From an uncultured virus (IMG/VR IMGVR_UViG_3300025120_014373) (lineage: Duplodnaviria > Heunggongvirae > Uroviricota > Caudoviricetes): 57,419 bases of DNA. Numbering within the stretch: position 1 is the first letter of the stretch; each line of letters starts with the position of its first letter. Of the stretch, positions 10,144-57,419 are shown in pieces. The notes below the pieces were generated by a model that worked only from the letters and a program-made list of their open reading frames with translations, did not search any database and was not told where the DNA came from. The DNA lies in IMG/VR virus record IMGVR_UViG_3300025120_014373; one strand, given 5' to 3'. Both the position numbers and the translations under genes were made by a program.

Positions 10144-11001
10144 CTAAACGTCTAAGCCTTCAAGTAGCTCTTTTAGAACTTCATCTTCATTATCATCTTT
10201 TTTAGTTTCGGTAACAGGGGTCGTAATTGGTGTAGTTTCAATAGGAGTATCAACTACAACATTTTCAACAACACTATTATCAGCTGATGCATCTCTAACA
10301 TAATAATGCTCATCCATCATCGTTTTAAGTTCATTTACACTCTTAACGCTAAATACACTAGATAGTTCAAATACATTTTCATAAATTGTATTATGACGAT
10401 CGTCATCTAGATTATCAATTGAACTCGGCATACCAAACTTAGATGATACATAAGTTGGGAAATCACCTTGCTTCTCAACCTTAACTCTAAAGTTAACACC
10501 GTCTGGACCTAGATCAAATATACGAGGACCTAATTCAGCTGCATCTTCACCTTCAATTGCATCGGTAATAATATTATGAATTTGCTTACCATAACGAAGC
10601 ATTTTAACCTTACCATTATTTTCAGGATTAACAGGGTCATTAACAACATATACATTAACTAACCATTTCTCAGAACGCATAATTGCCTTAGCCTTCTCTT
10701 TTTCTTCTTCATTACCCGTACGAAGTATCTTATATCGCTCTTCAGCAATAGGATCTCTCTCACCAAAGGTTTGAAGAGAAATTGCACTAGTATATTGACC
10801 AGTAGCAAAACTATTCCAACCATGCTGATAATAATGAAAGAACGTCTTGGAAGGATCCTTAGCATAAGGCAACAACCTTACAGTAAAGGTATTACCTGGA
10901 GGAGTCTTTAAGATATCACCTATTGCACTCTTATTACTATCGTTATCTGCTGCTAATGCAGACTTAATACTATCAAACATTGAACTCGTTATATTACTCA
11001 T
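10144..11001 (-). CDS. gp32: Single-stranded DNA-binding protein, gp32-like
   Basis: VRLLP, HGW, NVYVVNDPVNPENNGKV, YGKQI, IFD..G.NF, YVSSKF and acidic C-terminal tail. Confidence 0.9.
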   Translation of the reverse strand: MSNITSSMFDSIKSALAADNDSNKSAIGDILKTPPGNTFTVRLLPYAKDPSKTFFHYYQHGWNSFATGQYTSAISLQTFGERDPIAEERYKILRTGNEEEKEKAKAIMRSEKWLVNVYVVNDPVNPENNGKVKMLRYGKQIHNIITDAIEGEDAAELGPRIFDLGPDGVNFRVKVEKQGDFPTYVSSKFGMPSSIDNLDDDRHNTIYENVFELSSVFSVKSVNELKTMMDEHYYVRDASADNSVVENVVVDTPIETTPITTPVTETKKDDNEDEVLKELLEGLDV

Positions 11002-12824: not shown

Positions 12825-14165
12825 TTAATTACTCAACATATTAAGAGTACTAGTTAAATCAGACATTTCACTACCTTCATCATCAACGTTTAACGTCTCA
12901 TCTTCAGAAATAGTTAAAGTATCGTAATTTAATCTTAATGCTGTGTAACCATAATTAGCACCATACCTATTTTTCATCATACCCATTTTAACAATACCTA
13001 ACTCTTTATCTTCATCATCTTGAAATATACTAAAAATACAGTCAGCAGTAGCAGCCATACCAATCGATTCTGATATGGTATCCAACCCAGGGTTCTCTTC
13101 ATCATAACCTGATCTATTTAACTGAGTAGCAGAAATAAACGGGCATTCAAAAACGTAACTTAATGCTCGTATACCTTCAGCAACATGCTTAACTCTTTCA
13201 TAAGAATTATCACCGAGAGGACTTTTTAATAAATTTAAATAATCAAGAACTACTGCATCTACTTTAATACCTCTATTTTTTAATTCGGTAATATAACCTT
13301 GTATATTCTGAGGCGTAACAGTACTAGGAGGAAACTCTTTAATTAAAATCTTACTATTAGGTTTACCATTATTATAACTCTTTATTTGCGCAGATAAAGA
13401 TTGACCTGCTCCTTTTAATTCTCTCATCGGTATTCTAGTTATATTAGATGATAGCCTTCTTGCGTATATCATCTCCGACATTTCAAGACTAATAACTAGA
13501 ACCGTCTTACCCTTAGCAGCTATATTACAAGCTATATTACCAAGAAATATAGATTTACCAACATTTGATTCACCTGCAAACACATATAACGATCTACCAT
13601 TTTGTAAGAAACCACCATCTATTTTATCGTCTAACCATTTCCATCCTGAAGATATAGTAGGTTGGTCCACATTTAGATCATCAACTACCTTATCAATATT
13701 TTCAAATAAATCTAAACCTATCTCTTCCTTTAAATTAACGTTGCAGCTTTTTTCAAAACTATCTAAAATAAAACTTGTATTAACTTCCCCTTTACTAACA
13801 TCCTCAGCAACAGATAACATTGTATTGTATATTGCTCTTTCTTTTAAGAAACGTTCAGTATTAGAAGTTAATTCTTCATCATTAAAAGTTTTATCAATAT
13901 TAGGAAAATTCTTTACAACTGATCTAAAACTTTCTTTAAGTTCATCGTTAATTAAGTATGATTTTAATTCAGTAATAGTAGGTATACTTTGCCTCTTAAT
14001 ATAGAAATTAGTTATTAAACTAAAGACCGTCTTAATATTTTTATCATTAAAATACTCCGGCTTTATATGGTCTATAATTTGAGTTAAATAACTTTCGTTA
14101 GTCAAACTCTTATAAACTATAACCTGCTCATAATAATCTAAATTTAATCTACCTATATCTTCCAT
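12825..14165 (-). CDS. gp41: Replicative DnaB-type helicase, gp41-like
   Basis: AGESNVGKS, SLEMSE, IKEFP, LDYLNL, SATQLNRSG, SESIG, KNRYG. Confidence 0.95.
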   Translation of the reverse strand: MEDIGRLNLDYYEQVIVYKSLTNESYLTQIIDHIKPEYFNDKNIKTVFSLITNFYIKRQSIPTITELKSYLINDELKESFRSVVKNFPNIDKTFNDEELTSNTERFLKERAIYNTMLSVAEDVSKGEVNTSFILDSFEKSCNVNLKEEIGLDLFENIDKVVDDLNVDQPTISSGWKWLDDKIDGGFLQNGRSLYVFAGESNVGKSIFLGNIACNIAAKGKTVLVISLEMSEMIYARRLSSNITRIPMRELKGAGQSLSAQIKSYNNGKPNSKILIKEFPPSTVTPQNIQGYITELKNRGIKVDAVVLDYLNLLKSPLGDNSYERVKHVAEGIRALSYVFECPFISATQLNRSGYDEENPGLDTISESIGMAATADCIFSIFQDDEDKELGIVKMGMMKNRYGANYGYTALRLNYDTLTISEDETLNVDDEGSEMSDLTSTLNMLSN

Positions 14166-14491
14166 TATCTTCTTTCAATATCTTCTTCAATACATTTACC
14201 ACCATATTGGATTTCACATATAACACACATTCTATCACTAATATTAGCTGGTTGATGCCAATTTTCAACCGGTATATTAATAAAATCATTTTTGTGATAT
14301 ATATCACCGTTAAGAGACAATTCCCCTTCTAAAATAAACCAATGTTCATTTCTATGAAAATGTCTTTGATCACTTAAAGATTTACCTGGTTTAATATGTA
14401 AAGTTTTAATTTTATAATCTTTACCTTCAGATAAAACGTGGTACCAACCCCATAATGGTTTAATTACTTTTCCCATCTTTGCAATATCCAA
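14165..14491 (-). CDS. Cupin, mannose-6-phosphate isomerase type II C-terminal-like
   Basis: PLWGWY, SLSDQRHFHRNEHW, WH, EIQYG..EEDIER. Confidence 0.85.
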   Translation of the reverse strand: MDIAKMGKVIKPLWGWYHVLSEGKDYKIKTLHIKPGKSLSDQRHFHRNEHWFILEGELSLNGDIYHKNDFINIPVENWHQPANISDRMCVICEIQYGGKCIEEDIERR

Positions 14492-14901
14492 CTACTACTA
14501 TTTTTTTTATCTGATCCACCTACCCCGTACTGAAAAATAATTTCTTTATCATCAAATAAATCAGGATTTTCTTCTGGAACATTACCTTGTTTTCTATCCC
14601 CACCATTTGCAAATATAATTCTATCAAAGGGGAATAACATTATAACATTTTTTATAGCTTCAATTGCAGTACCGTCGTCATCATTAAAGAGAATGCAGTT
14701 ATCAACGTATTTTAAAGCTGATACTATTTCAAATCTTTCTGATAAGGATAAAAAGTTTTTACCTTTTTTCCGTTCTAACCAAGAATCAGAATTAACCCCT
14801 ACAATAAGTTTATCCCCTAGCTTTCTTGCTGCTTTGAGATATGCTAAATGTCCTGAATGTAATGGGTCAAATCCCCCTGTGACTAATACTATCGTTTCCA
14901 T
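14464..14901 (-). CDS. Cytidylyltransferase/adenylyltransferase family protein
   Basis: GGFDPLHSGH, VGVNSD, FANGGDR, KKNSSSWIL. Confidence 0.88.
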   Translation of the reverse strand: METIVLVTGGFDPLHSGHLAYLKAARKLGDKLIVGVNSDSWLERKKGKNFLSLSERFEIVSALKYVDNCILFNDDDGTAIEAIKNVIMLFPFDRIIFANGGDRKQGNVPEENPDLFDDKEIIFQYGVGGSDKKNSSSWILQRWEK

Positions 14902-15545
14902 TTTTTAATAAAATATTCTTGTCCTTTATAAAACTCTTCGTTAGGGTTTGTTAGACCCGGGCTTGAATGAATTATTGGGATATCAACTACCCCAATTTTA
15001 ACCTTATTTTTATTGCATTCTAAACTAAAATCTAAATCATAGTAATGAAACTTAGATGGGTAAGATTCGTCAAATTTTACATTAGTAGGTAAATTTCGTA
15101 TATTAATGCCGATAAAGACACCATCAATAACCAAAACACGGCCTGGAATAGGACCAAACGAAGTGTACTGATATTGGTCAGGATGTCCGTGAGCAACATT
15201 TCCTCTTTGGTCTTTTCTTTCGGACATAAGATGCCATAGAGCAGGTTCTTTAACCTTGCATGTACTAGCCCCTGCGAGACCAAAAACTGTATACATTTTT
15301 CCATAATCGTCCAACCTATGCAACAAATCCCCGCAATTAATAAAAACGTCGTCATGCACAAGCACGCAGATATCAACGTTACAACGACGAGCGTCTTCCA
15401 AAAAGCTGTTATAACAACTTTGCAAACTTTTAGTATTTTTTTCTTCATAATATACAGATAAATCGCGATATTTTTTATTAAGGGATTTATATAGTAAGGT
15501 GTCTTCTTTTTTACCTTTTGTAGCTGTGTAAATTTTATATTTCAT
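14889..15545 (-). CDS. GT-A fold glycosyltransferase-like protein
   Basis: VHDDV, GLAG, IDGVFI, FDE..FHYYDLDFSL, H.SPG. Confidence 0.78.
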   Translation of the reverse strand: MKYKIYTATKGKKEDTLLYKSLNKKYRDLSVYYEEKNTKSLQSCYNSFLEDARRCNVDICVLVHDDVFINCGDLLHRLDDYGKMYTVFGLAGASTCKVKEPALWHLMSERKDQRGNVAHGHPDQYQYTSFGPIPGRVLVIDGVFIGINIRNLPTNVKFDESYPSKFHYYDLDFSLECNKNKVKIGVVDIPIIHSSPGLTNPNEEFYKGQEYFIKKWKR

Positions 15546-16638
15546 TTAAGTATGGTTCAATTTTAATTGTATCAGGGGTATCGTTTATAAATTTATCTCG
15601 ATCTATTTCATTATAAAATAATGTTAATGAGTATCCACCAAAACCACCTCCACAATATTTGGTTGCGATTGAATTTTTAACATCAGGTAATATATCCATA
15701 CCCTCTTTTAGTTGTACTTTATAATTCATATTAATACCAGCGCATAATTGCTCTAAATTATTATTTTGTACCCCTGCATACGCTAAACGACTAGCCATGG
15801 CTAACAAATTATAATCACGATTATTTTTAACGTATGCTGGTGTATCATGATTAATTCCAGTATAATGTAAAGCCATTTTACCTTTTAATATATCTCCATT
15901 TCGTTTTAAAATAAGATAAGGTTTTTTACCACTTTTCCAAACACATAACCCTGTTTCTTTTATTACAGCGGGATCTTGCCAACCAACACCTAAATCTAAT
16001 TCACTTTGTACTCCATCTCTACCGTTTAATAATGCCCATGCCCCGCTACCTCCGAGACCGGATTGGGTTTCGTACGGCCAATTATGTAAAGATACAGTTG
16101 GGGATATTGCGCAATTTACTATAAACCCATCACTTCTTGCATGTTCAGGTACATCTAACCAACCACCGGCTAGGTCTACCCGTAGAGGAGCTTCGTTAGG
16201 TGTCTTTATATTATTGAGAATAGATGATGTACTTATCGGATCAAACTTTGGAGGTGTTTTTTTTAATTTAACATATTCTATATTGTGATTTGTACAGAAT
16301 TTTCTTTTAGTTTTTTCAAACTTATCGTCAGATGTAACTACTAAAACGTCAGGTGATATTTTTATTATTATATCTTTAAAATTTAAACCATTTTTATCTA
16401 AATTATGACCAATTACTACTTCATCGATAAAAGATATATTATTTAAAATTTCTATCTTATGCTCAATAGGTATACTTGGTCGTCTTTTTTTATACTGATA
16501 TAATACTTCATCAGAGGGTATACATACTACTAACTTATCTCCTAGTTTTAGAGCCTCTTTAAAAAATTCTATATGACCTGCATGAATAATATCATAACAA
16601 CCGGAAACAAATACTTTACTCATATTCTTCTCTATCAT
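15535..16638 (-). CDS. Cytidylyltransferase-GHMP sugar kinase fusion
   Basis: N-terminal GCYDIIHAGH...ISTS; C-terminal PLRVDLAGGWLD, SGLGGS, GWQD, CGGGFGG. Confidence 0.85.
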   Translation of the reverse strand: MIEKNMSKVFVSGCYDIIHAGHIEFFKEALKLGDKLVVCIPSDEVLYQYKKRRPSIPIEHKIEILNNISFIDEVVIGHNLDKNGLNFKDIIIKISPDVLVVTSDDKFEKTKRKFCTNHNIEYVKLKKTPPKFDPISTSSILNNIKTPNEAPLRVDLAGGWLDVPEHARSDGFIVNCAISPTVSLHNWPYETQSGLGGSGAWALLNGRDGVQSELDLGVGWQDPAVIKETGLCVWKSGKKPYLILKRNGDILKGKMALHYTGINHDTPAYVKNNRDYNLLAMASRLAYAGVQNNNLEQLCAGINMNYKVQLKEGMDILPDVKNSIATKYCGGGFGGYSLTLFYNEIDRDKFINDTPDTIKIEPYLNEI

Positions 16639-16957
16639 CCATTTCAGGTTTATAGTCTCTATTCCAGATCATACCCATAATATTCCATAAAGCAGCTCCT
16701 AAATGGTCTTCACTATCATCCCCAGTAAAGTCTTGCATTAAATGTCTCATAGTACTATCGTATAAAACTGAATGTTTCATGCCTTTCTTCCAATTATTTT
16801 CACCATATGTATCTGCTCCTTGTAAGTATCTCATCATTACACCGTTTAAGGCTTTATGAGGTACTAAACTCATTCGGAGTTTACCTTCTCCGCTATCTCG
16901 TTGAGCGCCGGTAGCAAATTGTCGTGGGTTTCCAGTAGTTTTAAGATTGCTCATCAA
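16616..16957 (-). CDS. dATP/dGTP diphosphohydrolase N-terminal-domain protein (DUF5664-like)
   Basis: TGAQRD..GK.RMSLVP, GADTYGENNWKKG, DS.MRHL, EDHLGAALWN. Confidence 0.8.
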   Translation of the reverse strand: MMSNLKTTGNPRQFATGAQRDSGEGKLRMSLVPHKALNGVMMRYLQGADTYGENNWKKGMKHSVLYDSTMRHLMQDFTGDDSEDHLGAALWNIMGMIWNRDYKPEMDDREEYE

Positions 16958-17420
16958 TAATATTATAAATAGGTTCCTTAAAAATTATATCCTGGGAATT
17001 AAAATCATTATTTTCAGTTTTATAATTATCTCCAAACCATTTTTTATAAAAGACTGCCCCTTCACTTTTTATATCTGAATTAACGTAATAAAACTTAATA
17101 TTATCTTTATGTTTATATATAGCATTTTTAATTAACAATTTAGCAATACCTTTACCTCTATTATATTTGGATGTAACTATATAATATGTTTTTAATGTAT
17201 TTTCTGCTTTTGTATTAACAGTATATGCATGTAGTCCAAGTACCCTACCTGTATCATCGGTACATACTTCTATTGGATATTTAGACCACCAATCTCTATC
17301 AGACCATGTATGACCAAATGTATTTAAAATAAAGGAGTTTGTATTATCGTAGATAAATTTAATAAATCTTAATTTATCTATCTCAGTTAATTGATTAATT
17401 GTTACGTAATTTATATTCAT
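16941..17420 (-). CDS. GNAT acetyltransferase
   Basis: Motif A NRGKGIAKLLI and motif B GAVFYKK. Confidence 0.8.
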   Translation of the reverse strand: MNINYVTINQLTEIDKLRFIKFIYDNTNSFILNTFGHTWSDRDWWSKYPIEVCTDDTGRVLGLHAYTVNTKAENTLKTYYIVTSKYNRGKGIAKLLIKNAIYKHKDNIKFYYVNSDIKSEGAVFYKKWFGDNYKTENNDFNSQDIIFKEPIYNIIDEQS

Positions 17421-18088
17421 AATGTTAAAAATGGTGAATCATATACAAACCCATCTATTTCAGTTAAACCTTCATATGAAAAGTTATAAAGTACACCCTG
17501 TAATACTTCTTTATAATCTTTACCTTTAATTGATGATATATTAGCGTCTTTGTAATACAATGTACTACCTTGTCTTGCCACATAAATATTCATCGTTTTT
17601 ATATTTACTAACCAAAGGGCGAAAGTACCTTTAAGTTTTTCTAAGGTATATAATATATTCTGAACTTCAGTTTCAGCATCCTCGCAAGGACCGTGAGTAT
17701 ATTCAAATTCATCTAATAATGCTGGTATTATACTGCTATCTACAGGGTTATCATGCATTGGTATATACTCATCAACTAATTCATTAAAATTAGTTAAAAC
17801 ACCATTATGAGCTACTATCCAATCCCCTACCCAAAATGGATGAGACGTTTCCTCTTGCCAACCTCTACCTGTTTCAGTAGGAGCCTGGTTATGACCCAAG
17901 TATAGATGACCTTCTTGGTGAGGTATTTTAGTTTTATTCCAGTTTATATTGTTTTTTTCCTTGAGTATATTGTAATTAGCTTTATTATAACAGTAAAATA
18001 TACCAGTTGAAAAATTACCACGCTTTTTATTAGCTTCCTGTAAAATTTCAAAGGTAGACAAATCATTACTACAATAAATACCACACAT
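17417..18088 (-). CDS. Class II (Ntn) glutamine amidotransferase domain protein
   Basis: MCGI nucleophile, RG, GH..APT, HPF, HNG, DS, GTFAL. Confidence 0.88.
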   Translation of the reverse strand: MCGIYCSNDLSTFEILQEANKKRGNFSTGIFYCYNKANYNILKEKNNINWNKTKIPHQEGHLYLGHNQAPTETGRGWQEETSHPFWVGDWIVAHNGVLTNFNELVDEYIPMHDNPVDSSIIPALLDEFEYTHGPCEDAETEVQNILYTLEKLKGTFALWLVNIKTMNIYVARQGSTLYYKDANISSIKGKDYKEVLQGVLYNFSYEGLTEIDGFVYDSPFLTL

Positions 18089-18096
18089 ATAACTAT

Positions 18097-18130
18097 ATTA
18101 TAGTATAAAATTAATAAAAATCAATAAATA
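18097..18130. promoter_or_regulatory. Overlapping divergent promoters: sigma70-type (-) and late-type (+)
   Basis: Minus: TTGATT-N16-TATAAT (18097-18124), 8 nt before ATG 18088. Plus: AATAAATA (18123-18130), 5 nt before ATG 18136. Confidence 0.65.
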
Positions 18131-18135
18131 ATAAT

Positions 18136-19317
18136 ATGAGTTTAAATAACTGGTCAAATAAAAAAATTATCGTTGAAAATACCTCAAGTTATATGTCGGA
18201 TCAAGATTTTGACATTGTGGAAGAAGCAAGAGGCAAAAAAATTGTTGATCCACTTAGAGCAAAACTAATGGGTATGGAAGATATCCGTGATTTAAAAGGT
18301 ACAATGACACCAAGATATTTCGCCACAAAGGTAATTAGATACTTACAAAAAGAAAATCCTGAATTAGATTTAGAAAATTTATCTGATGATGATATTCAAA
18401 ATGCTATCAATATTATGGCCAATGTTTCTAAGCCATTAGCTACTAGACCAGATGTAAAAATTACTACTAGAGAAAGAGGAGCTGCAAAAGAAGGTCTCAA
18501 GAAAGGTGATTCAGGTTTTGAAACTTTACAATTGAATCTTGGTGGTGATACAATTCTAAACTCTGAAGGCGGGGTTGGTGAAAATGATTTATACACTGTA
18601 GTAAGCGATGGTTTAAAATATAGAGTTACTCTTAATTCTTTTAAAGGTCAAAAACTTAACTTAGATGATATATCTAAAGATGATATCGTTTCAGTTGTTA
18701 TTGTAAAGCCAAGTGAAACAGAAAAAGTTGATAAATTTGGTGGTGAAATAGAAATGGGTGATAGAGAAAAATTAGTTGCTGATTTCCCAGAAGGTGAAGA
18801 AGATGGTATGTCAAATGCAATCGACGCTGTTGGTTATATGAGTCATCAAGATGGTTTTGGGTTACCTCCAGAAGATGCTGAAAACTGCGCAATGGTTAGT
18901 GATGAAGAATTCGATAAAGAAAAATCGGATTTAGATGATGATGGTGAGATTTCTGAATATGAAAAATCAAGAGGGGTAGCTATTGCTAATGCAATGAAGA
19001 AAGAGAAAGAAAGAGCAGGTCAAGAACATGCAAGAGCAGTTGCAGATCATTATGAAGACGATGAAGATGATAATGATCAATATACACCTGATGAAGCACC
19101 TGAAGATGATGAAATGGGTGAAATGGAACCTTTAGATGATGAAGAAGAAGAAAGATGCCCAGTAACGGGTAAGCTTAGAAAAAAGAAATCAGAATCTGAA
19201 GAAGAAGAGCAAGTTGCAATGTCTCAACAAGATATTAATAACTACTTACTTAACCAATACAGGCAAAAGATGCAAAATGCCCATTCTCAAGAAAGAATGA
19301 ATAGACACGGTTACTAA
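18136..19317 (+). CDS. Acidic late protein with EF-hand-like loop
   Basis: 393 aa, Asp/Glu-rich C-terminal half; DLDDDGEISEYE; IVE sites near the N-terminus. Confidence 0.65.
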   Translation: MSLNNWSNKKIIVENTSSYMSDQDFDIVEEARGKKIVDPLRAKLMGMEDIRDLKGTMTPRYFATKVIRYLQKENPELDLENLSDDDIQNAINIMANVSKPLATRPDVKITTRERGAAKEGLKKGDSGFETLQLNLGGDTILNSEGGVGENDLYTVVSDGLKYRVTLNSFKGQKLNLDDISKDDIVSVVIVKPSETEKVDKFGGEIEMGDREKLVADFPEGEEDGMSNAIDAVGYMSHQDGFGLPPEDAENCAMVSDEEFDKEKSDLDDDGEISEYEKSRGVAIANAMKKEKERAGQEHARAVADHYEDDEDDNDQYTPDEAPEDDEMGEMEPLDDEEEERCPVTGKLRKKKSESEEEEQVAMSQQDINNYLLNQYRQKMQNAHSQERMNRHGY

Positions 19318-20063
19318 TATAATATAGATTTACAATTATTATCTCTATAAACCGAATCTAACTTATCTTGCTGTTTATAACGTAACGGATCTTGTAATCC
19401 TGCGTCTAAAAACCCTTTCAACCTAAGAGAACTACTTGCACTATTAGCATCACATGGATATTCACCAGAATAACATGTATATGTATCAGCAAAATTGACT
19501 CCAAGCTCAACCCCATTTAAAATAATTTCTTTTTTACTCATCTTAAGAAGAGGAGCTCTTACTCTTATATCTATTTCCCGGTTTAATAAACAAATTTGAT
19601 TCATTTTATCAACAAACTGTACTGAACCATCCCAATAACCAGCAAGACTATCAGCTTCTGCTGCACCGTACCATACTTCATCAGCTTCCATTTTTTCTGC
19701 ATATGATAACAATATGCTTAAAAACATTAAATTACGAAATGGTACATATGATTTAGGTTGAGCCTCACCCATTATATCTTTTACGTCAGGTGTATCTATA
19801 TTATCATTTGTAAGAGAAGATGTATCAGCTATATCCTTAATATAAGTAACATCTAATAATTTATTAGTAAACTTAACATTTGTATAATTAAACTTAGCGT
19901 TAGCTAATTGCTTTTCAGCTGCTTCTAACTCTTTACTATGACGTTGACCGTAATTAAATGTTACAGTATGTACTTCATTATATTGCTCGGCTGCTTTATA
20001 TAGTAGAACAGATGAGTCCATACCACCGCTAAGCGTAATTACTATTTTATTTTTTTTTGCCAT
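19314..20063 (-). CDS. queC: 7-cyano-7-deazaguanine synthase-like (atypical)
   Basis: SGGMDS PP-loop, YGQRH..E, YVPFRN, TYTCY; YPDC and the C-terminal Zn-binding cysteines are altered. Confidence 0.88.
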   Translation of the reverse strand: MAKKNKIVITLSGGMDSSVLLYKAAEQYNEVHTVTFNYGQRHSKELEAAEKQLANAKFNYTNVKFTNKLLDVTYIKDIADTSSLTNDNIDTPDVKDIMGEAQPKSYVPFRNLMFLSILLSYAEKMEADEVWYGAAEADSLAGYWDGSVQFVDKMNQICLLNREIDIRVRAPLLKMSKKEIILNGVELGVNFADTYTCYSGEYPCDANSASSSLRLKGFLDAGLQDPLRYKQQDKLDSVYRDNNCKSILY

Positions 20064-22079: not shown

Positions 22080-24641
22080 TCAACTTAAAAGATCAAATAA
22101 ATTAGTTTGAACCGCATTACCTGGCTTTTGAATAGCCCATTTAACGTTATCATAAAATCTTTCAATAACTGCATAGAGATTTTTTTCAAACATTTTATCG
22201 TAATCTACATGAAATATCTTTTTAAATTCCTCTGGGTAATAATACTTGTATGCCAAGCTCGGTAAATTATACGGGTTAGGTTGCTGTAAGTAAAAGTATC
22301 TAACTTTATCTCCTGAACTAATAGTTTCATACTTTTTTTCTATATTAAACTTTTTAAGTAACATATTATGGTAATAAGCAGCTTTAACATGAATAGGCAT
22401 GCCTTTTGCAGTTTTCCAATCATCACATTGTCCTGCATATTTTTCATAACCTTTTAAACCCGATACAAAGGTAATATCTTCAACTGGTAGATCTTTAAAT
22501 ATCTTATACGTTTTATCAAGTACAGCATTAGTTTTAGCTATATTTTGGGTTGATAGCATCGTCTCAATTATACCTTTTACATGAGGTTTAATAGCATCCG
22601 GCATCGTGCTTCTTACAACTTCAACCCCAGTATACTTATACTTATCCATTGGTATACCCTCATCATCTAAAATATGCATAACGTAACGTTTCTTTTGTAA
22701 AAATATACCAGTATCAGCAATTACTTCACGTTTAAAGATAAATCTACAGTCTTTAGAATTTAAGTTTTTAATACCCCATACTTTAATTTCATCATTTAAG
22801 AAGTCTTCAATATTCTGCACCTCATCATGAAATGCTTGAGTTAACTTACCATTTTCATCGGTAAAAGTTAAACCTGCTTTAACTAAAGGTTTGACTGAAA
22901 TATAACTACTATCTGTATCGTTATATATTATACAATCATTAAGAGTTTTTTCATCCTCAACATTAGCTTTTTCTTTAATATACCTTTTAAGTAATTCGTT
23001 AGATTGTTTAATAACTGCTTGACCAGTTAAAGTAATTGAAGCTGCAATATCATCATCACCGAAAGGGGCATGCTTATTACCAAAATAACCGTAAATTGAA
23101 TTAATTAAAACTTTAATACATAACTGCTTTGCATCTAATTGATCAATTTCAAATTTAAGATCCTTATTTTTAACCTTACTCTTTGAATACTCTCTCTTAA
23201 GTTTTCCTAATTTAGTTTTTACAACAACACGTTTATCATAATAGTAATCTAAAATTTCAGGCATTACCCCTTTAAACTTTTGAGTAAATAGCACGTTAGC
23301 TTTACTAATAGCTATCTCTTCTTTTTTACAGAACTTTAAAAACTTTTCATGAGTTAAAGTAAAGACCTGACCATTAGCATGACGTATAACTATTTCATTA
23401 TCATTTTTATCTTCAATCTTACCCACTTTAGTTTCCGGGGACATATTTAGAGATATCATTACATTCGGGTATAGAGAGTTAGCATCAAACGATATAATAT
23501 TTTCTTGAAAACCTTTCAAAGGCTCACCAACAAATGCACCTGGATTTTTACCGGTATCAGCATTCCTAATAAACGAAGGTACACACTGACCACGCTTCCT
23601 TGATATAACAGCTGTTGCACCATTGATCACCGAAAGGGAACCCATAGCAGCTTCGAAGGTAGTTAGGCCAACATAAGCCAACATTTTAATTAGTTCTGTA
23701 TACTTTAGTTTATCTTCTAAGTTAGTTAGCAGTCTAACGTCCTGAATATTATATTCAACAAACGTTTGCCAATCAGTATCAGCAAGAGTAGCTAGATTCA
23801 TATTACCGAAATCTACTTTCTTCTCACCTAACTCTGCCTCGCCAATTGCATCAAGTTTATAACTTTCTTTTACCCCAACTGAGAAACGTTTATATACATC
23901 TAAATAGTCAATTAATGAAATACCTTCAACATACCAACGTTGTTGTTCTTGACCGAACTGACCACGTATTGTTCTACTATAAACCTTACCTGAAGGTGAT
24001 ATTCTATTAGTCCATTCCTCACCAAGTATACGAGTACATCTATTTAAGATATACGGTAAATCAAAAAATTCACTATTCCAACCTGACATTATATCAGGGT
24101 AATCTTTTTCAACATACTCAATAAACTTCATAAATAACTCCCTTTCAGAAGAGCAATTAACATATGTTACATCTTTATCTTTATTATTATACTCACCTAA
24201 ACCAAATGTATGGTATTGACGATTTAATGAATCAAAGCAAGTAATAACATTACAGGTATGAGTAGGGTCTTGAGGATTAGGAAACTCATCCGGGGAATAA
24301 GTCTCAATATCTAAGAACATAACCTTAATAGGGTTTTTACTAAATTCAGTCGTTTCGTTAACCTTCCAAAAAGTATCAATTAAGTACTGCTGTACTGCTG
24401 GCTGATTCTCAAATACTCTTTTAATACCGGTATCTTTAATATACTTGAATCGGTCATACTGAGTCCTAAAACTCTTCTTAACCAGTTTAGTCCCGAAAAT
24501 AGATTCATAATCACCCTTACCTTCGACATACAAATAAGGGTCATAGGATGTAGTTACTTTAATTCTTTTACCGTTGGTATCCCAGGTAAATAAATTAATA
24601 CATCTTTCACGGGGATCATAGTATATATTACGATAACTCAC
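22080..24641 (-). CDS. gp43: Family B DNA polymerase, gp43-like
   Basis: Exonuclease motifs DIET, GWNSEFFDLPY, YNIQDV; polymerase motifs DANSLYP, K..INSIYG, YNDTDS, KKRY; no intein. Confidence 0.97.
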   Translation of the reverse strand: MSYRNIYYDPRERCINLFTWDTNGKRIKVTTSYDPYLYVEGKGDYESIFGTKLVKKSFRTQYDRFKYIKDTGIKRVFENQPAVQQYLIDTFWKVNETTEFSKNPIKVMFLDIETYSPDEFPNPQDPTHTCNVITCFDSLNRQYHTFGLGEYNNKDKDVTYVNCSSERELFMKFIEYVEKDYPDIMSGWNSEFFDLPYILNRCTRILGEEWTNRISPSGKVYSRTIRGQFGQEQQRWYVEGISLIDYLDVYKRFSVGVKESYKLDAIGEAELGEKKVDFGNMNLATLADTDWQTFVEYNIQDVRLLTNLEDKLKYTELIKMLAYVGLTTFEAAMGSLSVINGATAVISRKRGQCVPSFIRNADTGKNPGAFVGEPLKGFQENIISFDANSLYPNVMISLNMSPETKVGKIEDKNDNEIVIRHANGQVFTLTHEKFLKFCKKEEIAISKANVLFTQKFKGVMPEILDYYYDKRVVVKTKLGKLKREYSKSKVKNKDLKFEIDQLDAKQLCIKVLINSIYGYFGNKHAPFGDDDIAASITLTGQAVIKQSNELLKRYIKEKANVEDEKTLNDCIIYNDTDSSYISVKPLVKAGLTFTDENGKLTQAFHDEVQNIEDFLNDEIKVWGIKNLNSKDCRFIFKREVIADTGIFLQKKRYVMHILDDEGIPMDKYKYTGVEVVRSTMPDAIKPHVKGIIETMLSTQNIAKTNAVLDKTYKIFKDLPVEDITFVSGLKGYEKYAGQCDDWKTAKGMPIHVKAAYYHNMLLKKFNIEKKYETISSGDKVRYFYLQQPNPYNLPSLAYKYYYPEEFKKIFHVDYDKMFEKNLYAVIERFYDNVKWAIQKPGNAVQTNLFDLLS

Positions 24642-33456: not shown

Positions 33457-34496
33457 GCTGGAAATCACTAGATCAAATATACCTAAATGAATCTGCAGGT
33501 ATAAAGGTAAAAAAATTACCTAGACAAGAGATTATAGGAGAGAATATTCAGATTTTCAAAGGGGAAAATGGTAGATATGATTATATTGGCACGGTCGATG
33601 ATAAAGAATTAAAAAAAATCTCAAGAATAGCTGGTAATAAAAACGATAAGGTTATTATAGATTATGTATCTTCAAAAAATTATAGTAAAGATGCATTTAA
33701 TAAAGAATTCTTTTTTAAATCTTTAATAACTTTATTAGAAAATTATTCTTTTGATGATTATATCGGTAGAGATAATAAACCAAAAGTCTTAGATAATAAA
33801 ATAGGAAATTTAGTAGATATTGGCACTCAAATAGGTTTAGACGATACATTCTTACGAGAATTAGCTAATTTTACCGCAGTTGATAAAGGAGGTAGTAACA
33901 TAGGTCCAGGGGAAATAATGCTAGCTTTAGTATTTGATGATATTAAAAATTCTACCGTAGGTGGTGATTTAATGTTAGAGGATAAACAAAAATTAGAAGT
34001 CAAGGGTCAAGGTGGTAGATTTGGCCAACAAGGTGGTAGATCAGGTCAAACAGTTGCTTTTGATAAACTTTTAAATGATATAGAAGAAAAAGTTGAAATA
34101 GCCCAAAATTCATCAATGGCTCAAACTTTTAATAATGTTTATAATGTATACAAAAAAGAAAATAAGCTAGATAAATTTCTAGGTAATCTTTACGAATTTA
34201 TTAAACAGTTTTATCCTAATGGGCAGCCAGAAATATTTTTAAATAAATCTACTAATTTTAATGATATAGTTGATATAAGAAGAAATATTCAAAAAATCTA
34301 TTCTAATAATTATCTGAATCAGTATGAATATGATTTACTTTTATTTATTGATAAAAATAAATTAAATTATGCATTATTTTCCAAGGAAGACTTAATTGGT
34401 AGTGGTGGTTTAATAGATGAAGGAAGATTTAAAACAAATAACTTTAGATTTAATGAACTGTACCCTAATAACCATTTACCTGAACTTAAAAAATGA
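33453..34496 (+). CDS. Putative PD-(D/E)XK nuclease-fold protein
   Basis: GPGE...GGDL......LEVKG spacing matches E..D..ExK; MSWKSLDQIYLNE leader. Confidence 0.45.
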   Translation: MSWKSLDQIYLNESAGIKVKKLPRQEIIGENIQIFKGENGRYDYIGTVDDKELKKISRIAGNKNDKVIIDYVSSKNYSKDAFNKEFFFKSLITLLENYSFDDYIGRDNKPKVLDNKIGNLVDIGTQIGLDDTFLRELANFTAVDKGGSNIGPGEIMLALVFDDIKNSTVGGDLMLEDKQKLEVKGQGGRFGQQGGRSGQTVAFDKLLNDIEEKVEIAQNSSMAQTFNNVYNVYKKENKLDKFLGNLYEFIKQFYPNGQPEIFLNKSTNFNDIVDIRRNIQKIYSNNYLNQYEYDLLLFIDKNKLNYALFSKEDLIGSGGLIDEGRFKTNNFRFNELYPNNHLPELKK

Positions 34497-36469
34497 TAAA
34501 CTTTAAACAACATCACTCAGTACTATTAGAATTCTTCGATGCGATCGATGGAGCAGTTAAGCATATTGACCATTTAGAAGAAAATATACTTAATAAAGGT
34601 AAGCAAGGTGTTATAGAAGCTATTAACCAAATAGAATCTTCTATATCATATTTTGTCGATGAATCTGATTATAAAATATCTACTAAGTTTGATGGAGCAC
34701 CTGCTATTGTTGCAGGTATTGATACTAATAATAAATTTTTCGTAGCTAGTAAGTCAGCTTTCGCTAAAAACCCTAAAATTAATTATACAGAACAAGATAT
34801 TACCGAAAATCATGGTACAGGTGGATTGGCTGATAAGTTAAAATTAGCTTTACGGTATTTACCGTCTTTAAACCTTAAAGGTATATATCAAATGGATTAT
34901 ATGTTTGATCCGCAAATGAAAGTGTATGAAACACCAGAAACAATTGACGGTGTTAAAAATGAAAATAAATTTTTAACCTTTACCCCTAATACTATTAAAT
35001 ATGCTGTTACAGAAAATAGCCCATATGGAGATCAAATAGCTAGGTCCAAGATAGGTGTTGCAGTTCATATTGAATATATGGTGCAAAATGGTATATTGAA
35101 AGTAAAAAAATATACTTCTTCAACAGATGAATTTTCACCATCTAATACAGTATTTGTTTTTAACGTACTAGCAAATAAAGCCAAAAATAGTAAATCTTCT
35201 TTTAGTAAATTACTCTTAAAAGATGTAAAAACAAAAAAGAAACAGCTACTTAAATTAGCCGATAAGGTCGATTTTAGTTCACTAGATGATTATACAAGTA
35301 CTCTTAAATCTTATATTAATTCTGAAATAAGATCAGGTAGATTCTTAGAAGATACATCGATATCTACTGAAGAATATGTTAACTATATTAGTGGTAGATT
35401 TACTAAAGAGTTGGAAAGACTAAAAAGTGAAAAAGGTAAGGTAAAAAAGCAAGAGCAGATGAAATCGACATTAAAATCTCTTAAAATACTTAAACCTTCT
35501 ATTAAAAATGCTTTCGAAATTACTAAAATTATTGCTAATTTAAAAAATAATTTAATTAAAATTTTTAATGAAATAACAAAAAATGATTTGTTAGGTACAT
35601 ATCTTGATGAAAGCCCTAATAACTGGCAAACAACTGCTCCTGAAGGTTTTGCTTTATCAAAAGTTACTGCTGATGGTGCAGAAATTACTAAAATGGTAGA
35701 TAGAGAAGAATTTAGCCGAGCTAATTTTGGTACCGGTAAACCAACATCTCCAGAAAATCAAGAATCTTATATTAGCAACCCGCCTATGTTTAATACAGGT
35801 GAAGGTACAAGACTACAAAAGCGGTCAACTTTTGGGGAAATGTATAAAATTATTAAAGAGTTTGAAGATGCTGAAGATTTAACAAAAACAGTAGTTATTT
35901 ACCCAGGAAGATTTCACCCATTCCATAAAGGTCATGCGTCTGTTTATAATAAATTGAAACAACAATTTCCAGCAGCAGATGTATTCGTCTCTACATCTGG
36001 TAAAACTAACGATACAAATTCGCCGTTTGAATTCGAAGAAAAGAAAATGATGATACAAAGTGCTGGTATCGACCCACAATTTGTTGAAATGACAGCTAAC
36101 CCATATTTGGCTAAAGAAATAACTGAAAGATATGATTTAGATAAAACTAAAGTTATATTTGCTGTTTCTGAAAAGGATATGGAAGGTGATAAACCACGCT
36201 TTAAATTTGGTTTAAAGAAAGACGGTACTCCTAGTTACTTTCAACCATATGATAAATCTAAAAAATTAACTAGTGGGGATAAACACGGTTATATTGCAAC
36301 TTTACCTACTATGGATTTTAGTATTCTTGGTAAAGATATTAGAAGTGCATCTCAAATAAGAGAATTATATAAAAATTCTGATGAACAAGGTAGAAGAGAC
36401 CTTATTCAAGACCTATACGGTTCACTAGACGAAGAGGTAAAAAGAATATTTGACAATAAGCTAATTTAA
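34493..36469 (+). CDS. Fusion of a ligase-like nucleotidyltransferase domain and an HxGH cytidylyl/NMN-adenylyltransferase-like domain
   Basis: N-domain HIDHLEE, TKFDGAPA, GIYQMD, PNTIKY, PEGFAL, KMVDREEFSRANF; C-domain PGRFHPFHKGH, SP.F.EK, SASQIR. Confidence 0.7.
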   Translation: MINFKQHHSVLLEFFDAIDGAVKHIDHLEENILNKGKQGVIEAINQIESSISYFVDESDYKISTKFDGAPAIVAGIDTNNKFFVASKSAFAKNPKINYTEQDITENHGTGGLADKLKLALRYLPSLNLKGIYQMDYMFDPQMKVYETPETIDGVKNENKFLTFTPNTIKYAVTENSPYGDQIARSKIGVAVHIEYMVQNGILKVKKYTSSTDEFSPSNTVFVFNVLANKAKNSKSSFSKLLLKDVKTKKKQLLKLADKVDFSSLDDYTSTLKSYINSEIRSGRFLEDTSISTEEYVNYISGRFTKELERLKSEKGKVKKQEQMKSTLKSLKILKPSIKNAFEITKIIANLKNNLIKIFNEITKNDLLGTYLDESPNNWQTTAPEGFALSKVTADGAEITKMVDREEFSRANFGTGKPTSPENQESYISNPPMFNTGEGTRLQKRSTFGEMYKIIKEFEDAEDLTKTVVIYPGRFHPFHKGHASVYNKLKQQFPAADVFVSTSGKTNDTNSPFEFEEKKMMIQSAGIDPQFVEMTANPYLAKEITERYDLDKTKVIFAVSEKDMEGDKPRFKFGLKKDGTPSYFQPYDKSKKLTSGDKHGYIATLPTMDFSILGKDIRSASQIRELYKNSDEQGRRDLIQDLYGSLDEEVKRIFDNKLI

Positions 36470-39555: not shown

Positions 39556-40581
39556 ATGAATGTTAATAATTTAAGTATTAAAAATTTTGATGTCGATTAC
39601 GAAACAAAAAGATGTAATCGAGCGAAATTAGATACTGGATTTCACTGCAATTATAAGTGTGAATTTTGTTATTACATAGATAGGCTAGATGTTAAAACCC
39701 CATTTTCTACAATACAGCAACGTATTAATATACTTCATAAATATGGTATTTCCGAAGTAGACTTATCTGGAGGTGAAAGTTCAATACATAAAGATTGGTT
39801 TAAAATACTAGATTATTGCAATGAAAGATTTGATAATATTAGTTGTTTAAGTAATGGTTCAGTCTTTTCTAACGAAAAGTTTTTATTAAAATCAAAAAAG
39901 CATGGTCTAAAAGAAATATTATTTAGTTTACATGGTTATAATGAAGAAGTACATGATGATATAGTAGGTAGAAAAAATGGTTGGAAGAAAATACATAAAG
40001 CTATTAAACTATGTAAGAAACATGATATAAAAGTTAGGATTAATTGCACAGTATATCAAAAAAATTACAAAGGTTTAGTAGAATATGCTGATATTATAAA
40101 GGAAATACAACCATTTCAAGTTAACTTTTTAACGTTAAACTACTGGGATGCCAATAAAACATTCGAACCTATTGATGATTACGAAGGTCTTACAGATAAA
40201 ATAAAACAGTGTATTGATCTTATCGTAAATGATACAAAATATATTAATGTAAGATATACCCCTTACTGCTATATGAAGGGTTATGAAAAATATGTATGTA
40301 ATCAGTATCAACATGTGTATGATATATATGATTGGAATAAGGAAATATATGATTATGATGTAGATTTAACTAAAACATACACTGAAAAAGAAAAAATAGA
40401 TTTAGGTTATTTAAAAGCACAAGACGGTCGACTAGATGGGTGTAAGAAACCTATTAAATGTATAAGATGTAAATATTTTAACATCTGCGATGGTATTGAA
40501 CAGCAACTAGATATAGAAGTACACCCTGAAGAAGGGGAAAAAATTACTGATGTAAATTTTTATAGAAAAGATTTTTATTAA
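39556..40581 (+). CDS. Radical SAM protein with C-terminal Cys cluster (SPASM-like)
   Basis: CNYKCEFC, SGGE, SNG, SLHG...HD; C-terminal CIRCKYFNICDG. Confidence 0.9.
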   Translation: MNVNNLSIKNFDVDYETKRCNRAKLDTGFHCNYKCEFCYYIDRLDVKTPFSTIQQRINILHKYGISEVDLSGGESSIHKDWFKILDYCNERFDNISCLSNGSVFSNEKFLLKSKKHGLKEILFSLHGYNEEVHDDIVGRKNGWKKIHKAIKLCKKHDIKVRINCTVYQKNYKGLVEYADIIKEIQPFQVNFLTLNYWDANKTFEPIDDYEGLTDKIKQCIDLIVNDTKYINVRYTPYCYMKGYEKYVCNQYQHVYDIYDWNKEIYDYDVDLTKTYTEKEKIDLGYLKAQDGRLDGCKKPIKCIRCKYFNICDGIEQQLDIEVHPEEGEKITDVNFYRKDFY

Positions 40582-45027: not shown

Positions 45028-45047
45028 TAAATTAATTAAATACATAA

Positions 45048-49661: not shown

Positions 49662-49668
49662 TAATATT

Positions 49669-55278: not shown

Positions 55279-55560
55279 TTACCAAATTTCTAAAGCTCGT
55301 CCAAACCCGAATACATTTACAATACAAAAATATATTGTTAATAATAACGGGAAAGCTAATTTTCTCATATAATGTGCTATTGATGAACAAAAAGCAGCTA
55401 TAAAAAAAATAGGGTAAACTAAAATCATATTTGGGTTGTTCGCTGTATTAGCTAAATAGAAAGAAGCAGAAACAGCACCAACAAAAGCTACAATCTCAAA
55501 GTAAAATGCTTTTTTATTTGATGTATAACTACCAACCCAGAATTTTTTCATTTTTTCCAT
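55279..55560 (-). CDS. Small membrane protein
   Basis: Three hydrophobic helices; coupled to folE2. Confidence 0.7.
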   Translation of the reverse strand: MEKMKKFWVGSYTSNKKAFYFEIVAFVGAVSASFYLANTANNPNMILVYPIFFIAAFCSSIAHYMRKLAFPLLLTIYFCIVNVFGFGRALEIW

Positions 55561-56612
55561 TAACGTAACCCGGTAGTTTCAAATACATCTCTTGCAACTC
55601 CTGCTGAAAAGCCTCCTTCAACACCTTTAACTATAACTGATATAGCGTTATGACTATGAAGACTTTCATTATGAGAAGCTACAATCTTAAAGTCTTTAAT
55701 ACGAGACTCGCTACTAAGCTTTTCATACATTAAACGTACTGCATCTTCTACAAACTTTAGATTAGAACCATTAAGTTCAGCAAATGCTTGCTCATCTTCT
55801 CTCTTAACCATAACTTGTGTTTCAGTCTGTAAAGCAGTCAAGCATAACTCTTGTATATCTTCTACCCACAACATATCATCAAACTTAACACTAACTCTTG
55901 CAACACTTCGTTGACTATGAGGTACAGTAGCACGGTTACGATACTTTTCAGCATGCTCACTCAATTCAAAACTACAAGGACATGCAGATGAATATACAAA
56001 ATCGAAGTGAATATACTTCTTAAATTCACCATCTTTAGTAAGATCACCTTCGAATACTACATCATAATATTGATAACCTTCTAACCCACTACGTAAACTA
56101 GTTTGCTTAATAGGATATGAAATCTTAAGCATAATTCTAGAATCAAAGCATTTAAGATTCTCTCTATATGACTCTAATACATCTTTAATATTATTAATAC
56201 TAAAAACATCATCCTTATGATCATAAAAACTTCTCATTATACGAGACATATTAATACCTTTCTTATGAGCTTCTAAACTTACACTACCAGTTACACTAGT
56301 TTCAAGATTAATAGTCTTACCATCTCTCTTCTTATATGTTAAAGGTAACTTAAAGTTATGTATACCTACTTGTTGAATAGGTACCGCAGCACCTTGAATT
56401 AAACTCGACGGGCCATTCTGTAGATCGGGTAGAGATGAAATATATTTTCTATCGGCTTTAACCTTATTATCATAAACTCTAATAGGGGGAAAATAACCTT
56501 TACTATATTCTTCACCCATTAGTTCTTTTGCAATAATATCTTTTTCACCGGTAAGTTCACTTTCACTTACATCATCACCCAACCATTCATAACTTTTATT
56601 TTTATCCGACAT
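55560..56612 (-). CDS. folE2: GTP cyclohydrolase IB
   Basis: LPDLQ, KGINMSRI, SSACPCS, PHSQRS, VKREDEQAFAE, FVEDAVR, ESLHSHNA. Confidence 0.95.
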   Translation of the reverse strand: MSDKNKSYEWLGDDVSESELTGEKDIIAKELMGEEYSKGYFPPIRVYDNKVKADRKYISSLPDLQNGPSSLIQGAAVPIQQVGIHNFKLPLTYKKRDGKTINLETSVTGSVSLEAHKKGINMSRIMRSFYDHKDDVFSINNIKDVLESYRENLKCFDSRIMLKISYPIKQTSLRSGLEGYQYYDVVFEGDLTKDGEFKKYIHFDFVYSSACPCSFELSEHAEKYRNRATVPHSQRSVARVSVKFDDMLWVEDIQELCLTALQTETQVMVKREDEQAFAELNGSNLKFVEDAVRLMYEKLSSESRIKDFKIVASHNESLHSHNAISVIVKGVEGGFSAGVARDVFETTGLR

Positions 56613-56618
56613 ATATCT

Positions 56619-56646
56619 ATTATACCATATAGATTAAATATTTCAA
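56619..56646. promoter_or_regulatory. Overlapping divergent promoters: sigma70-type (-) for folE2 and late-type (+)
   Basis: Minus TTGAAA-N16-TATAAT, 6 nt before ATG 56612; plus ATTAAATA (56633-56640), 5 nt before ATG 56646. Confidence 0.7.
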
Positions 56647-57419
56647 TGACCGATAAAGAATTATTTGAGAAAACTGAAAAAGTTTTTAAACTCAAGAAAG
56701 AGAATAAGATTATTAAAGAATCTTATAATAAAAGTGAATTTAAAAAGGTTTTGGAAAAAAATAAACGCAAGATTCGTTATAAAAGTTCTGACAACGAACA
56801 AAAAACATCTCCAATTGGATCAAATTACGGAGATAATACAGTAAGTGCTGCTAGGGGATTAGGTAGAGGAGCAGCAACAGCAGCTCAATTAGGTGGTCAA
56901 GCCATAGGAGCGACAGCTAGAGCTGGTGCAGCAACAGCAGGAGCAGCAGCAAGAGGATTAGGTAAATTTGGTAAATTTTTAAGTAAAGTAACCCCTGGAA
57001 CTAAAGCTTATAAGGATAGAAAAGCCGATACACAACAAAAACAAGCTCAAGCTAGGGCCGAACAACTAAAAAATATTCAAATGCAACAGCAAATGATGTT
57101 CGGTGGTGATCAATCTAAACCTGGTCAAGATGGCAAGCCGGGTCCAGGAGGTCCAGGAGGTCCTAAACCAGGTCCAGGAGGTCCAGGAGGTCCTAAGCCA
57201 GGTCCAGGAGGTGAAGGTCCAAAAGGTCCAGGAGGTCCAGGAGGTCCGAAACCAGGTCCAGGAGGTCCAAAACCAGGTCCAGGAGGTCCAAAACCAGGTC
57301 CAGGAGGTCCTAAGCCAGGTCCAGGAGGTCCAGGAGGTGAAGGTCCAGAAGGTGAAGGTCCAAAAGGTCCAGAAGGTGAAGGTCCAAAAGGTCCAGAAGG
57401 TGAAGGTCCAAAAGGTCCA
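56646..57419 (+). CDS. Late protein with Gly/Pro repeats (3'-truncated; absent from the ORF track)
   Basis: Open frame MTDKELFEK...AARGLGRGAATAAQLGG...KPGPGGPGGPKPGPGG... to the window end. Confidence 0.8.
   Translation, partial: MTDKELFEKTEKVFKLKKENKIIKESYNKSEFKKVLEKNKRKIRYKSSDNEQKTSPIGSNYGDNTVSAARGLGRGAATAAQLGGQAIGATARAGAATAGAAARGLGKFGKFLSKVTPGTKAYKDRKADTQQKQAQARAEQLKNIQMQQQMMFGGDQSKPGQDGKPGPGGPGGPKPGPGGPGGPKPGPGGEGPKGPGGPGGPKPGPGGPKPGPGGPKPGPGGPKPGPGGPGGEGPEGEGPKGPEGEGPKGPEGEGPKGP
57141..57419 (+). repeat. Coding tandem repeats (GPGGP/KPGPGGP, then GEGPKGPE)
   Basis: Recurring ggtccagga units, 21-30-nt composites, and a 24-nt unit gaaggtgaaggtccaaaaggtcca at the end. Confidence 0.9.

Follow-up and report, generated by a model that had tools for sequence, protein, structure and literature searches.

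The DNA analyzed here, called the window below, is a stretch of 57,419 nucleotides at the right-hand end of a linear record (119,419 bases) of an uncultured virus (IMG/VR IMGVR_UViG_3300025120_014373; Caudoviricetes). Its subject is a minus-strand module in which a stand-alone glutamine amidotransferase, a GNAT acyltransferase and a DUF5664 nucleotide hydrolase lie next to the 7-deazaguanine gene queC. Positions refer to the window unless prefixed C1, which denotes whole-contig numbering. The contig has 29.7% G+C and a completeness estimate of 56%; since the window codes for gp32, a gp41-type helicase, a family B polymerase, RecA-like UvsX, UvsY and a late sigma factor, the phage is regarded as T4-like. 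QueC, the preQ0 synthase (19314..20063, minus strand; PF06508, E = 6e-53; TIGR00364 over its cut-off), has partly replaced C-terminal zinc-site cysteines (C-Y-x5-C-D-A-N-S-A-S-S-S-L-R), as does the QueC of Flavobacterium phage immuto_2-6A. It is not fused to the class-II (Ntn) glutamine amidotransferase (GATase; 223 aa; 17417..18088, minus strand; PF13522, E = 2e-6); the two are separate open reading frames (ORFs) with an opposite-strand gene between them. The GATase is followed by the GNAT (159 aa; 16941..17420, minus strand; PF13508 at E = 7e-5, under the cut-off, and PF00583 at the cut-off) and by a member of the DUF5664/PF18909 dATP-dGTP diphosphohydrolases (112 aa; 16616..16954, minus strand; E = 6e-19, 68.4 bits vs. 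a cut-off of 27), whose likely start is the ATG at 16954. Further along the minus strand lie a cytidylyltransferase-like and kinase-like sugar-activation fusion (15535..16623), a GT2-like glycosyltransferase with unassigned substrate (14889..15545; PF13712), a cytidylyltransferase-like gene (14464..14901), a cupin (14165..14491) and the gp41-type replicative helicase (12825..14165); from GATase to gp41, stops and starts overlap. Among the 59 related representatives that served for presence counts of the operon genes, the GT2 gene is kept in all (59/59), and the fusion (7/59), the cytidylyltransferase-like gene (12/59) and the cupin (9/59) are accessory. QueC lies upstream of GATase in 82 of 82 related loci with more than 3.5 kb of upstream sequence, and for this reason the arrangement is not due to chance. 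An earlier interpretation made from the letters alone (the sequence-only reading) had placed all of these named ORFs correctly, from QueC to gp41.

The gene inserted between queC and GATase (18136..19317, plus strand) codes for a 393-aa acidic protein with no family match, an unassigned function and a conserved position. A TAAATA late-type element lies directly upstream of it (18125-18130) and also precedes 9 of the 11 genes that we take to be structural, but none of 13 replication or metabolic genes (background 5%); the label of late gene that it had been given is therefore reasonable, and as far as shown the protein stands outside the pathway. A sigma-70-like promoter match before the GATase start (TTGATT-16-TATAAT; 18097..18124, minus strand) is a consensus match only, from a scan barely above chance (34 sites vs. 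22.8 ± 5.3 expected).

The remaining pathway genes are dispersed over the contig and, in part, over its relatives. FolE2, the GTP cyclohydrolase of the first step, is present where it had been reported (55560..56612, minus strand; E = 6e-73), and QueD, QueE and DpdA are indeed not recognizable within the window. The search of the contig beyond the window that had been recommended recovered dpdA3 and queF, and not queD or queE. Three adjacent genes at C1:18375-20623 encode a protein of 263 aa, a kinase of the AAA_28 family and a bimodular QueF, in which both Pfam domains and the ESKSIKLY motif are present. The 263-aa protein (C1:19832-20623) matched 32 phage records and is identified as DpdA3; its best match is the DpdA3 of immuto_2-6A (50% identity over 97%, E = 1e-70), and further matches occur in Campylobacter phages including CP220 (47%) and in Cellulophaga phage phiST (27%). 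Its structure model, with a predicted local distance difference test score (pLDDT) of 89, matches the fold of tRNA-guanine transglycosylases; a Protein Data Bank (PDB) sequence search gave chance hits only. A phosphoribosyltransferase is encoded at C1:3720-4184, and a formyltransferase (PF00551/DpdN) was not found in the contig. The relatives G003 (185 kb; pathway and replication proteins mostly 83-98% identical to those of this phage), G019 and G025 (both rated 100% complete) carry QueD and QueE 1-8 kb upstream of folE2, with NCBIfam matches below the curated cut-offs. The contig ends 807 bases upstream of folE2, within a truncated ORF with a long Gly-Pro-rich tandem repeat (56646..57419, plus strand); because the G003 homologue of this ORF separates folE2 from queD and queE, both genes probably lie beyond the contig break. 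In the complete G019 and G025, FolE2, QueD, QueE, QueC, QueF, DpdA3, the kinase and the GNAT are all present, and no formyltransferase was found. These results support the membership of the module in a 7-deazaguanine DNA pathway. Six radical-SAM genes stand in a run at 39556-46975, together with a GT2 gene and unassigned ORFs; as candidates for QueE they were rejected, since none reached the QueE cut-off and the QueE proteins of immuto_2-6A and G003 matched none of them. At another locus (L314:82-3784), dpdA3, kinase and queF occupy the usual place of the GATase operon start, after queC and the late gene, which may be a rearrangement or a misassembly.

The position directly after GATase is occupied by one of two acyltransferase types. 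This slot was surveyed in two scans with a GATase alignment, which contributed the best 80 of 246 viral and the best 80 of 231 metagenome hits; the two collections overlap, and the resulting 160 loci are partly duplicated records (related loci are labeled L, longer relative records G, and proteins from a GNAT-family profile search P). This GNAT follows in 114 loci and a DpdN-type formyltransferase in 37; no locus has both, and nine have neither. Seven of these nine end at the GATase, and two (L111 and L112) truly lack a slot gene. The counts were redone after L179, first taken to be without an acyl gene, proved to carry a DpdN-GT2 fusion. A four-base overlap between the GATase stop and the slot gene recurs in 138 of 144 usable loci. 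Measured against the DpdN of immuto_2-6A, the slot formyltransferases show 37-46% identity (34 full-length sequences compared) and have the HGW, NGHPG and LKGKDPQ blocks in common with it. Three clusters at ≥95% GATase identity contain both acyl types; L050 (formyl) and L028 (acetyl-type) share 93% DNA identity over GATase and 94% over DUF5664, with a break exactly at the slot gene, and in this pair as in L052/L148 an identity of 91-94% ends at the slot ATG. Of the longer records (n = 25), 20 are GNAT-type and five carry the slot formyltransferase; DpdA3 was found in six, all of them GNAT-type and including both complete ones. A formyltransferase match in the GNAT-type G003 was set aside, since the protein is Fmt/ArnA-like, belongs to a sugar cluster and is not DpdN. 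The GNAT itself yields a model of pLDDT 88 whose top Foldseek hits are GNATs (E = 7e-9); in motif A (RxxGxA), R88 and G91 are invariant and A93 nearly so among 28 sequences. A profile search of 1.84 billion representatives returned only 44 hits, and the family is accordingly small. Near the slot, a nucleoside 2-deoxyribosyltransferase-like gene (PF15891) stands directly after the GNAT in G025 (L264:5837-6322), with a homologue in G019 (L241:13308-13688), which is without DUF5664; it may be a further pool-level enzyme.

An exchange of DpdN for a GNAT is also seen in dpdA3 gene clusters of other lineages. Three scans (with the DpdA3 alignment, the immuto_2-6A DpdA3 and the immuto_2-6A DpdN) gave 235 loci, of which 195 have dpdA3 and queF in order; after merging at 95%, 113 representatives remained. 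A DpdN-type gene lies between dpdA3 and queF in 78 of the 113, and the kinase in 108. Of the 86 representatives that the DpdA3 queries recovered, 51 have DpdN in the interval and six a GNAT; the other 29 have no acyl gene there and group with the DpdA3 of this phage. The six GNAT cases represent three separate events in three other lineages. In the first, a 508-aa FkbH fusion is followed by a VOC-family gene (L397, L401 and L403, near-identical); its FkbH part scores over the TIGR01686 cut-off, and its C-terminal domain shares 35% identity with the window GNAT. In the second, an unrelated GNAT of 181-190 aa stands between dpdA3 and kinase (L349:5798-6349, L351:5788-6360, L356:5801-6346), and no formyltransferase was found in the complete record G033 of this lineage. 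The third is a kinase-GNAT fusion (L420:6816-7772, L421:6123-7079). In addition, protein P0217, known as a protein alone and without gene context, joins the window GNAT family to a kinase that shares 38% identity with the dpdA3-adjacent kinase of the contig. Separately, P0232 combines a GNAT with a domain matching 5-hydroxymethyldeoxyuridine DNA kinase (PF18748, just under cut-off).

Within the clade of this phage, the acyl type follows the replication proteins and not its immediate neighbors. It needs one change on each of the trees for the gp43-type family B DNA polymerase (22080..24641, minus strand; 34 rows, five of them formyl, last 300 aa), gp41 (57 rows, 16 formyl), DHH (27 rows, eight formyl) and the single-stranded DNA-binding protein gp32 (10144..11001, minus strand; 37 rows, 11 formyl). 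On the trees of UvsX, QueC, GATase, DUF5664 and GT2, genes that lie between the replisome genes, it needs six to eight changes. With the same 41 rows, gp41 recovers a formyl clade with 99% support, whereas the approximately unbiased (AU) test rejects this clade for GATase (p = 9e-46), DUF5664 (p = 2e-5) and GT2 (p = 6e-7). The formyl-type G006 and this phage are 90-96% identical in QueC, UvsX, DUF5664 and FolE2 and only 56-72% in gp41, gp32, gp43, gp46, gp47 and the late sigma factor. A count of eight repeated acyl-gene swaps, taken from the eight changes on the GATase tree, was dropped after the replisome trees and the AU test. The trees show a pattern in which the flanking genes have crossed between acyl types several times and the acyl gene has not, with one acetyl/formyl exchange in the clade. 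Because the acyl type splits once on the polymerase, helicase and single-stranded DNA-binding protein trees and the direct neighbors mix, the acyl group is likely carried on the DNA; the simplest reading is that the DNA-handling proteins are adapted to it, although strong selection for another reason is possible.

Taken together, these observations lead to a fairly probable account in which GTP is converted to preQ1 by known enzymes, DpdA3 exchanges the base, and the GNAT acetylates the nitrogen. Since the GNAT occupies the DpdN slot in a phage with DpdA3, QueF, QueC and FolE2, it is likely to act on the free amine of preQ1; its annotation as a preQ1 N-acetyltransferase is a prediction from gene context, with acetyl-CoA as the assumed donor, and acylation of the base, as the sequence-only reading had proposed, emerges as the most likely role. 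FolE2 and QueC, together with QueD and QueE, which were found in relatives and not in the contig, would convert GTP to preQ0 by the established pathway, and GATase is likely to supply QueC with glutamine-derived ammonia. QueF would reduce preQ0 to preQ1, as established for phage QueF, DpdA3 (a family assignment by sequence, with predicted activity) would exchange the base for guanine, and the GNAT would add the acyl group. The phage DNA is then likely to contain N-acetyl-preQ1 in place of most or all guanine, with a predicted m/z of 338.146; formyl and acetyl could be alternative caps whose likely purpose is the blocking of host nucleases. The earlier interpretation had been drawn without DpdA3, kinase and QueF, all outside the window, and without the replacement of DpdN by GNAT; its further-decorated deazaguanine stands in part, as an acylated and not as a glycosylated or archaeosine-derived base.

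The archaeosine route implied by that interpretation would make GATase and QueC a split Gat-QueC producing archaeosine (G+), perhaps acetylated afterwards by the GNAT. The GATase is indeed homologous to residues 1-217 of the Gat-QueC of Enterobacteria phage 9g (hhalign probability 92%, E = 7e-7), which together with DpdA gives the archaeosine nucleoside dG+ (PMC6884629), and both systems combine QueC with a homologous class-II GATase with N-terminal cysteine. In contrast to phage 9g, the two genes here are 1.2 kb apart, DpdA3 takes the place of DpdA1, and a QueF is present and linked to dpdA3; L489 and L506 even carry dpdA3, dpdN, kinase, queF, queC and GATase as a single run, and phages that have split QueC and GATase together with QueF show no dG+. 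The archaeosine route is not supported by these arrangements and is most unlikely; the stand-alone GATase is likely the glutaminase of QueC, feeding it ammonia with no archaeosine implied. Residues C2, N95-G96 and D117 of the GATase are invariant in 33 sequences, and their catalytic roles are presumably those of the corresponding GlmS residues; a PDB sequence search returned generic GlmS and PurF entries only. A predicted QueC-GATase complex lends weak support (score 0.55 vs. 0.00 for the best control; contacts agreeing to ≥83%, partner pLDDT ≥86), with the proviso that a score in this range is more often wrong than right unless the pairing is likely beforehand; passes at ≤0.60 were recorded for 18 of 157 solved complexes and for both mismatches that passed (2/215), and halves of fused genes tend to pass. 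A GATase match in Leptolyngbya phage Lbo-JY46 belongs to an unrelated context and was discarded. In the Vibrio phages VH7D and nt-1, a "hypothetical protein" overlapping queC (L551:4720-5328, L552:4720-5328) is a stand-alone class-II GATase homologue.

Other alternatives concern the acyl donor, the acceptor and a possible sugar. The GNAT could acylate preQ1 with a glyceryl, propionyl or thioester-derived formyl group instead of acetyl; the FkbH-fused member of its family, which in L403 fills the DpdN slot together with a downstream VOC/epimerase-like gene, would fit this, as FkbH-like proteins load glyceryl units, but no FkbH or VOC homologue occurs in the contig, G003, G019, G025 or the other relatives examined, and a formyl product would leave the replisome difference between the two types unexplained, so that a non-acetyl donor appears rather unlikely for this phage. 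The FkbH-GNAT lineage itself, an immuto-like phage (L403:6918-8812, also L397 and L401; P0210, P0218), is a candidate producer of another acyl-preQ1 base, for example glyceryl-preQ1, with a predicted m/z of 384.151. An alternative in which GNAT and slot formyltransferase alike serve virion glycosylation, by N-acylating an amino sugar or protein, while the DNA keeps unacylated preQ1, is unlikely. The slot does stand among sugar-activation genes in a genome with large sugar clusters, DpdN function is only predicted, and the invariably kept GT2 is fused to the slot formyltransferase in L179 (L179:1660-2901); yet the same type of formyltransferase is fused to DUF5664 in L145 (L145:3528-4403), and such fusions therefore follow adjacency. 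Moreover, the slot formyltransferase belongs to the DpdN type, which most representatives carry in the dpdA3-queF interval (51 of 86 when only DpdA3 queries are counted), and it differs from the formyltransferase in the sugar cluster of G003; the acyl type sorts with polymerase, helicase and single-stranded DNA-binding protein and not with GT2. Glycosylation of the acylated deazaguanine, or of another base, by the GT2 into a larger DNA modification is very unlikely. The GT2 gene is coupled to gp41 in all 59 representatives, it has one DpdN fusion, and look-alike clusters are viral; but it mixes freely across acyl types, the other three of the four sugar genes are found in only 7-12 of 59 representatives, an amide offers no obvious acceptor, immuto_2-6A DNA contains plain formyl-dPreQ1 (fdPreQ1), and four of five genomes searched lack a thymidylate-synthase-family gene for a hydroxymethyl handle. 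The glycosylated base of the sequence-only reading is accordingly weak. A tblastn search of GT2 against 50,697 annotated phage records gave no match.

As a caveat, several observations weigh against N-acetyl-preQ1 DNA as formulated above. The Foldseek hits of the GNAT are generic (11-18% identity) and give no substrate clue; tblastn of the GNAT against the same 50,697 records found no match and hence no cultured carrier, and the FkbH fusion of a family member points to a non-acetyl donor in that lineage. In this contig the GNAT lies 59 kb away from dpdA3-queF, among sugar genes, and QueD and QueE are absent from what is a 56%-complete record. DpdA3 was seen in none of the five formyl-type records of the clade, fragments none of which is long enough. 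The primase does not sort by acyl type, and the changes on the GATase tree do not amount to eight independent swaps, because the replisome trees show one GNAT/DpdN exchange. In L111 and L112, GT2 directly follows GATase, which makes them candidates for unacylated preQ1 DNA. According to the immuto_2-6A study, DpdA3 was inactive in E. coli tests and DpdN is only a predicted formyltransferase (PMC10516641).

In the same study, insertion of the base is proposed to follow replication; all dG in immuto_2-6A is replaced by formyl-dPreQ1, and the DpdA3 phages discussed (CP220, phiST and immuto_2-6A) are all fully substituted (PMC10516641). Exchange and acylation at the nucleotide level, which had been raised as a possibility and is plausible, is here somewhat favored over a post-replicative process, because of the kinase in nearly all dpdA3 clusters (108/113), the two kinds of kinase-GNAT fusion, the neighboring pyrophosphohydrolases and the completeness of substitution. 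In that case the substrate of DpdA3 might be dGMP or a comparable nucleotide, its product might be phosphorylated by the adjacent kinase, DUF5664 might return dGTP to dGMP, and an adapted polymerase might incorporate the modified base. In this scheme DUF5664 is a candidate for clearing dGTP. The clade can do without it, given that 12 of 59 representatives and the complete G019 lack the gene. In L343 and L510, however, it stands beside dpdA3/dpdN, a place taken in immuto_2-6A by another kind of pyrophosphohydrolase and in CP220 by an HD-domain protein. How often an NTP pyrophosphohydrolase gene flanks dpdA3 was counted as well, but the count was left unused, as that gene partly defines the lineage label, and a PDB sequence search with DUF5664 found nothing. 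The DUF5664 protein of Arthrobacter phage Wayne, one of the Z-genome phages, is of the same Pfam family, likewise stand-alone and from a base-substituting phage; it hydrolyzes dATP, dUTP and dGTP with a kcat tenfold higher for dATP than for dGTP, and its relatives are also found in phages whose genomes are canonical (PMC12884076). In contrast to that preference for dATP over dUTP and dGTP, a preference for dGTP would be needed here, and no purZ was found among the ORFs scanned.

Compared with known systems, the phage most resembles immuto_2-6A, with which it shares DpdA3, the adjacent kinase (35% identity), the bimodular QueF (44%), the reduced zinc-site cysteines of QueC, a phosphoribosyltransferase (25%) and a nucleotide pyrophosphohydrolase; the GTP cyclohydrolase, QueC and NADPH-dependent QueF that the immuto_2-6A system requires are all encoded. 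In contrast, a GNAT replaces DpdN, and the acyl gene has left the dpdA3-queF cluster for the GATase-helicase operon; FolE2 is found instead of FolE, DUF5664 instead of a PRA-PH/MazG-like hydrolase, a family B instead of a family A polymerase, and a stand-alone GATase, which was not found in the two immuto_2-6A stretches examined. Because DpdN is absent, the phage is not a member of the fdPreQ1 system, but its system works like it. The Vibrio phages VH7D, phi-Grn1 and phi-ST2 (DpdA2, DpdM) also combine QueF, QueC and a stand-alone GATase homologue with substitution of the preQ1 amine; their modification is a methyl group, at low level and with DpdA2, whereas here an acyl group is predicted, and the DpdA3 present is of the kind associated with full replacement. 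Expressed in E. coli, the DpdA2 of VH7D gave dPreQ1 in plasmids (PMC10516641). The literature searched, the coverage of which is incomplete, mentions neither acetyl-preQ1 in DNA nor the GNAT-for-DpdN exchange, so that a report may exist; the words "acetyl" and "GNAT" are absent from the supplement of PMC10516641.

Elsewhere in the window, a sugar cluster at 47891-53720 contains a split transketolase, epimerases, a DegT-type aminotransferase fragment and a PIG-L deacetylase, as well as a sugar dehydrogenase, a polysaccharide deacetylase and a glycosyltransferase. A 62-aa histone H1-like Hc1 protein (53727-53915; PF07432, E = 2e-16) is encoded near folE2 here and in relatives, and a 658-aa protein at 34493-36469 fuses DUF6267 with a cytidylyltransferase-like domain. 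Of the sampled words of the region, 89-96% were present in three marine metagenome runs, one of them possibly the source sample; the other sequencing runs held ≤30%, and a single RNA row at 7% is no evidence.

A broader and more speculative proposal, doubtful as a whole, is that a widespread aquatic T4-like group replaces every guanine by N-acetyl-preQ1 before replication, with DpdA3 acting at the nucleotide level together with a kinase and a dGTP hydrolase and not as a DNA transglycosylase; formyl and acetyl would then mark two replication types with co-adapted polymerase, helicase and single-stranded DNA-binding protein, so that adjacent genes could pass from one type to the other and the acyl gene could not, and a third, FkbH-GNAT lineage would carry another acyl base, possibly glyceryl-preQ1. 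The analysis adds one more predicted natural base to the 7-deazaguanines of DNA, specifies its exact mass, names a putative enzyme and provides comparative support for the assignment of DpdN, itself only predicted. It bears on how DpdA3 phages reach 100% guanine replacement when DpdA3 alone is inactive in E. coli, and it draws attention to conserved kinase and hydrolase partners that are not part of the published model. If true, the tie between acyl group and replication proteins would be a case of a change in the genetic alphabet acting as a barrier to gene flow, and these phages would be a source of polymerases adapted to 7-substituted guanine.

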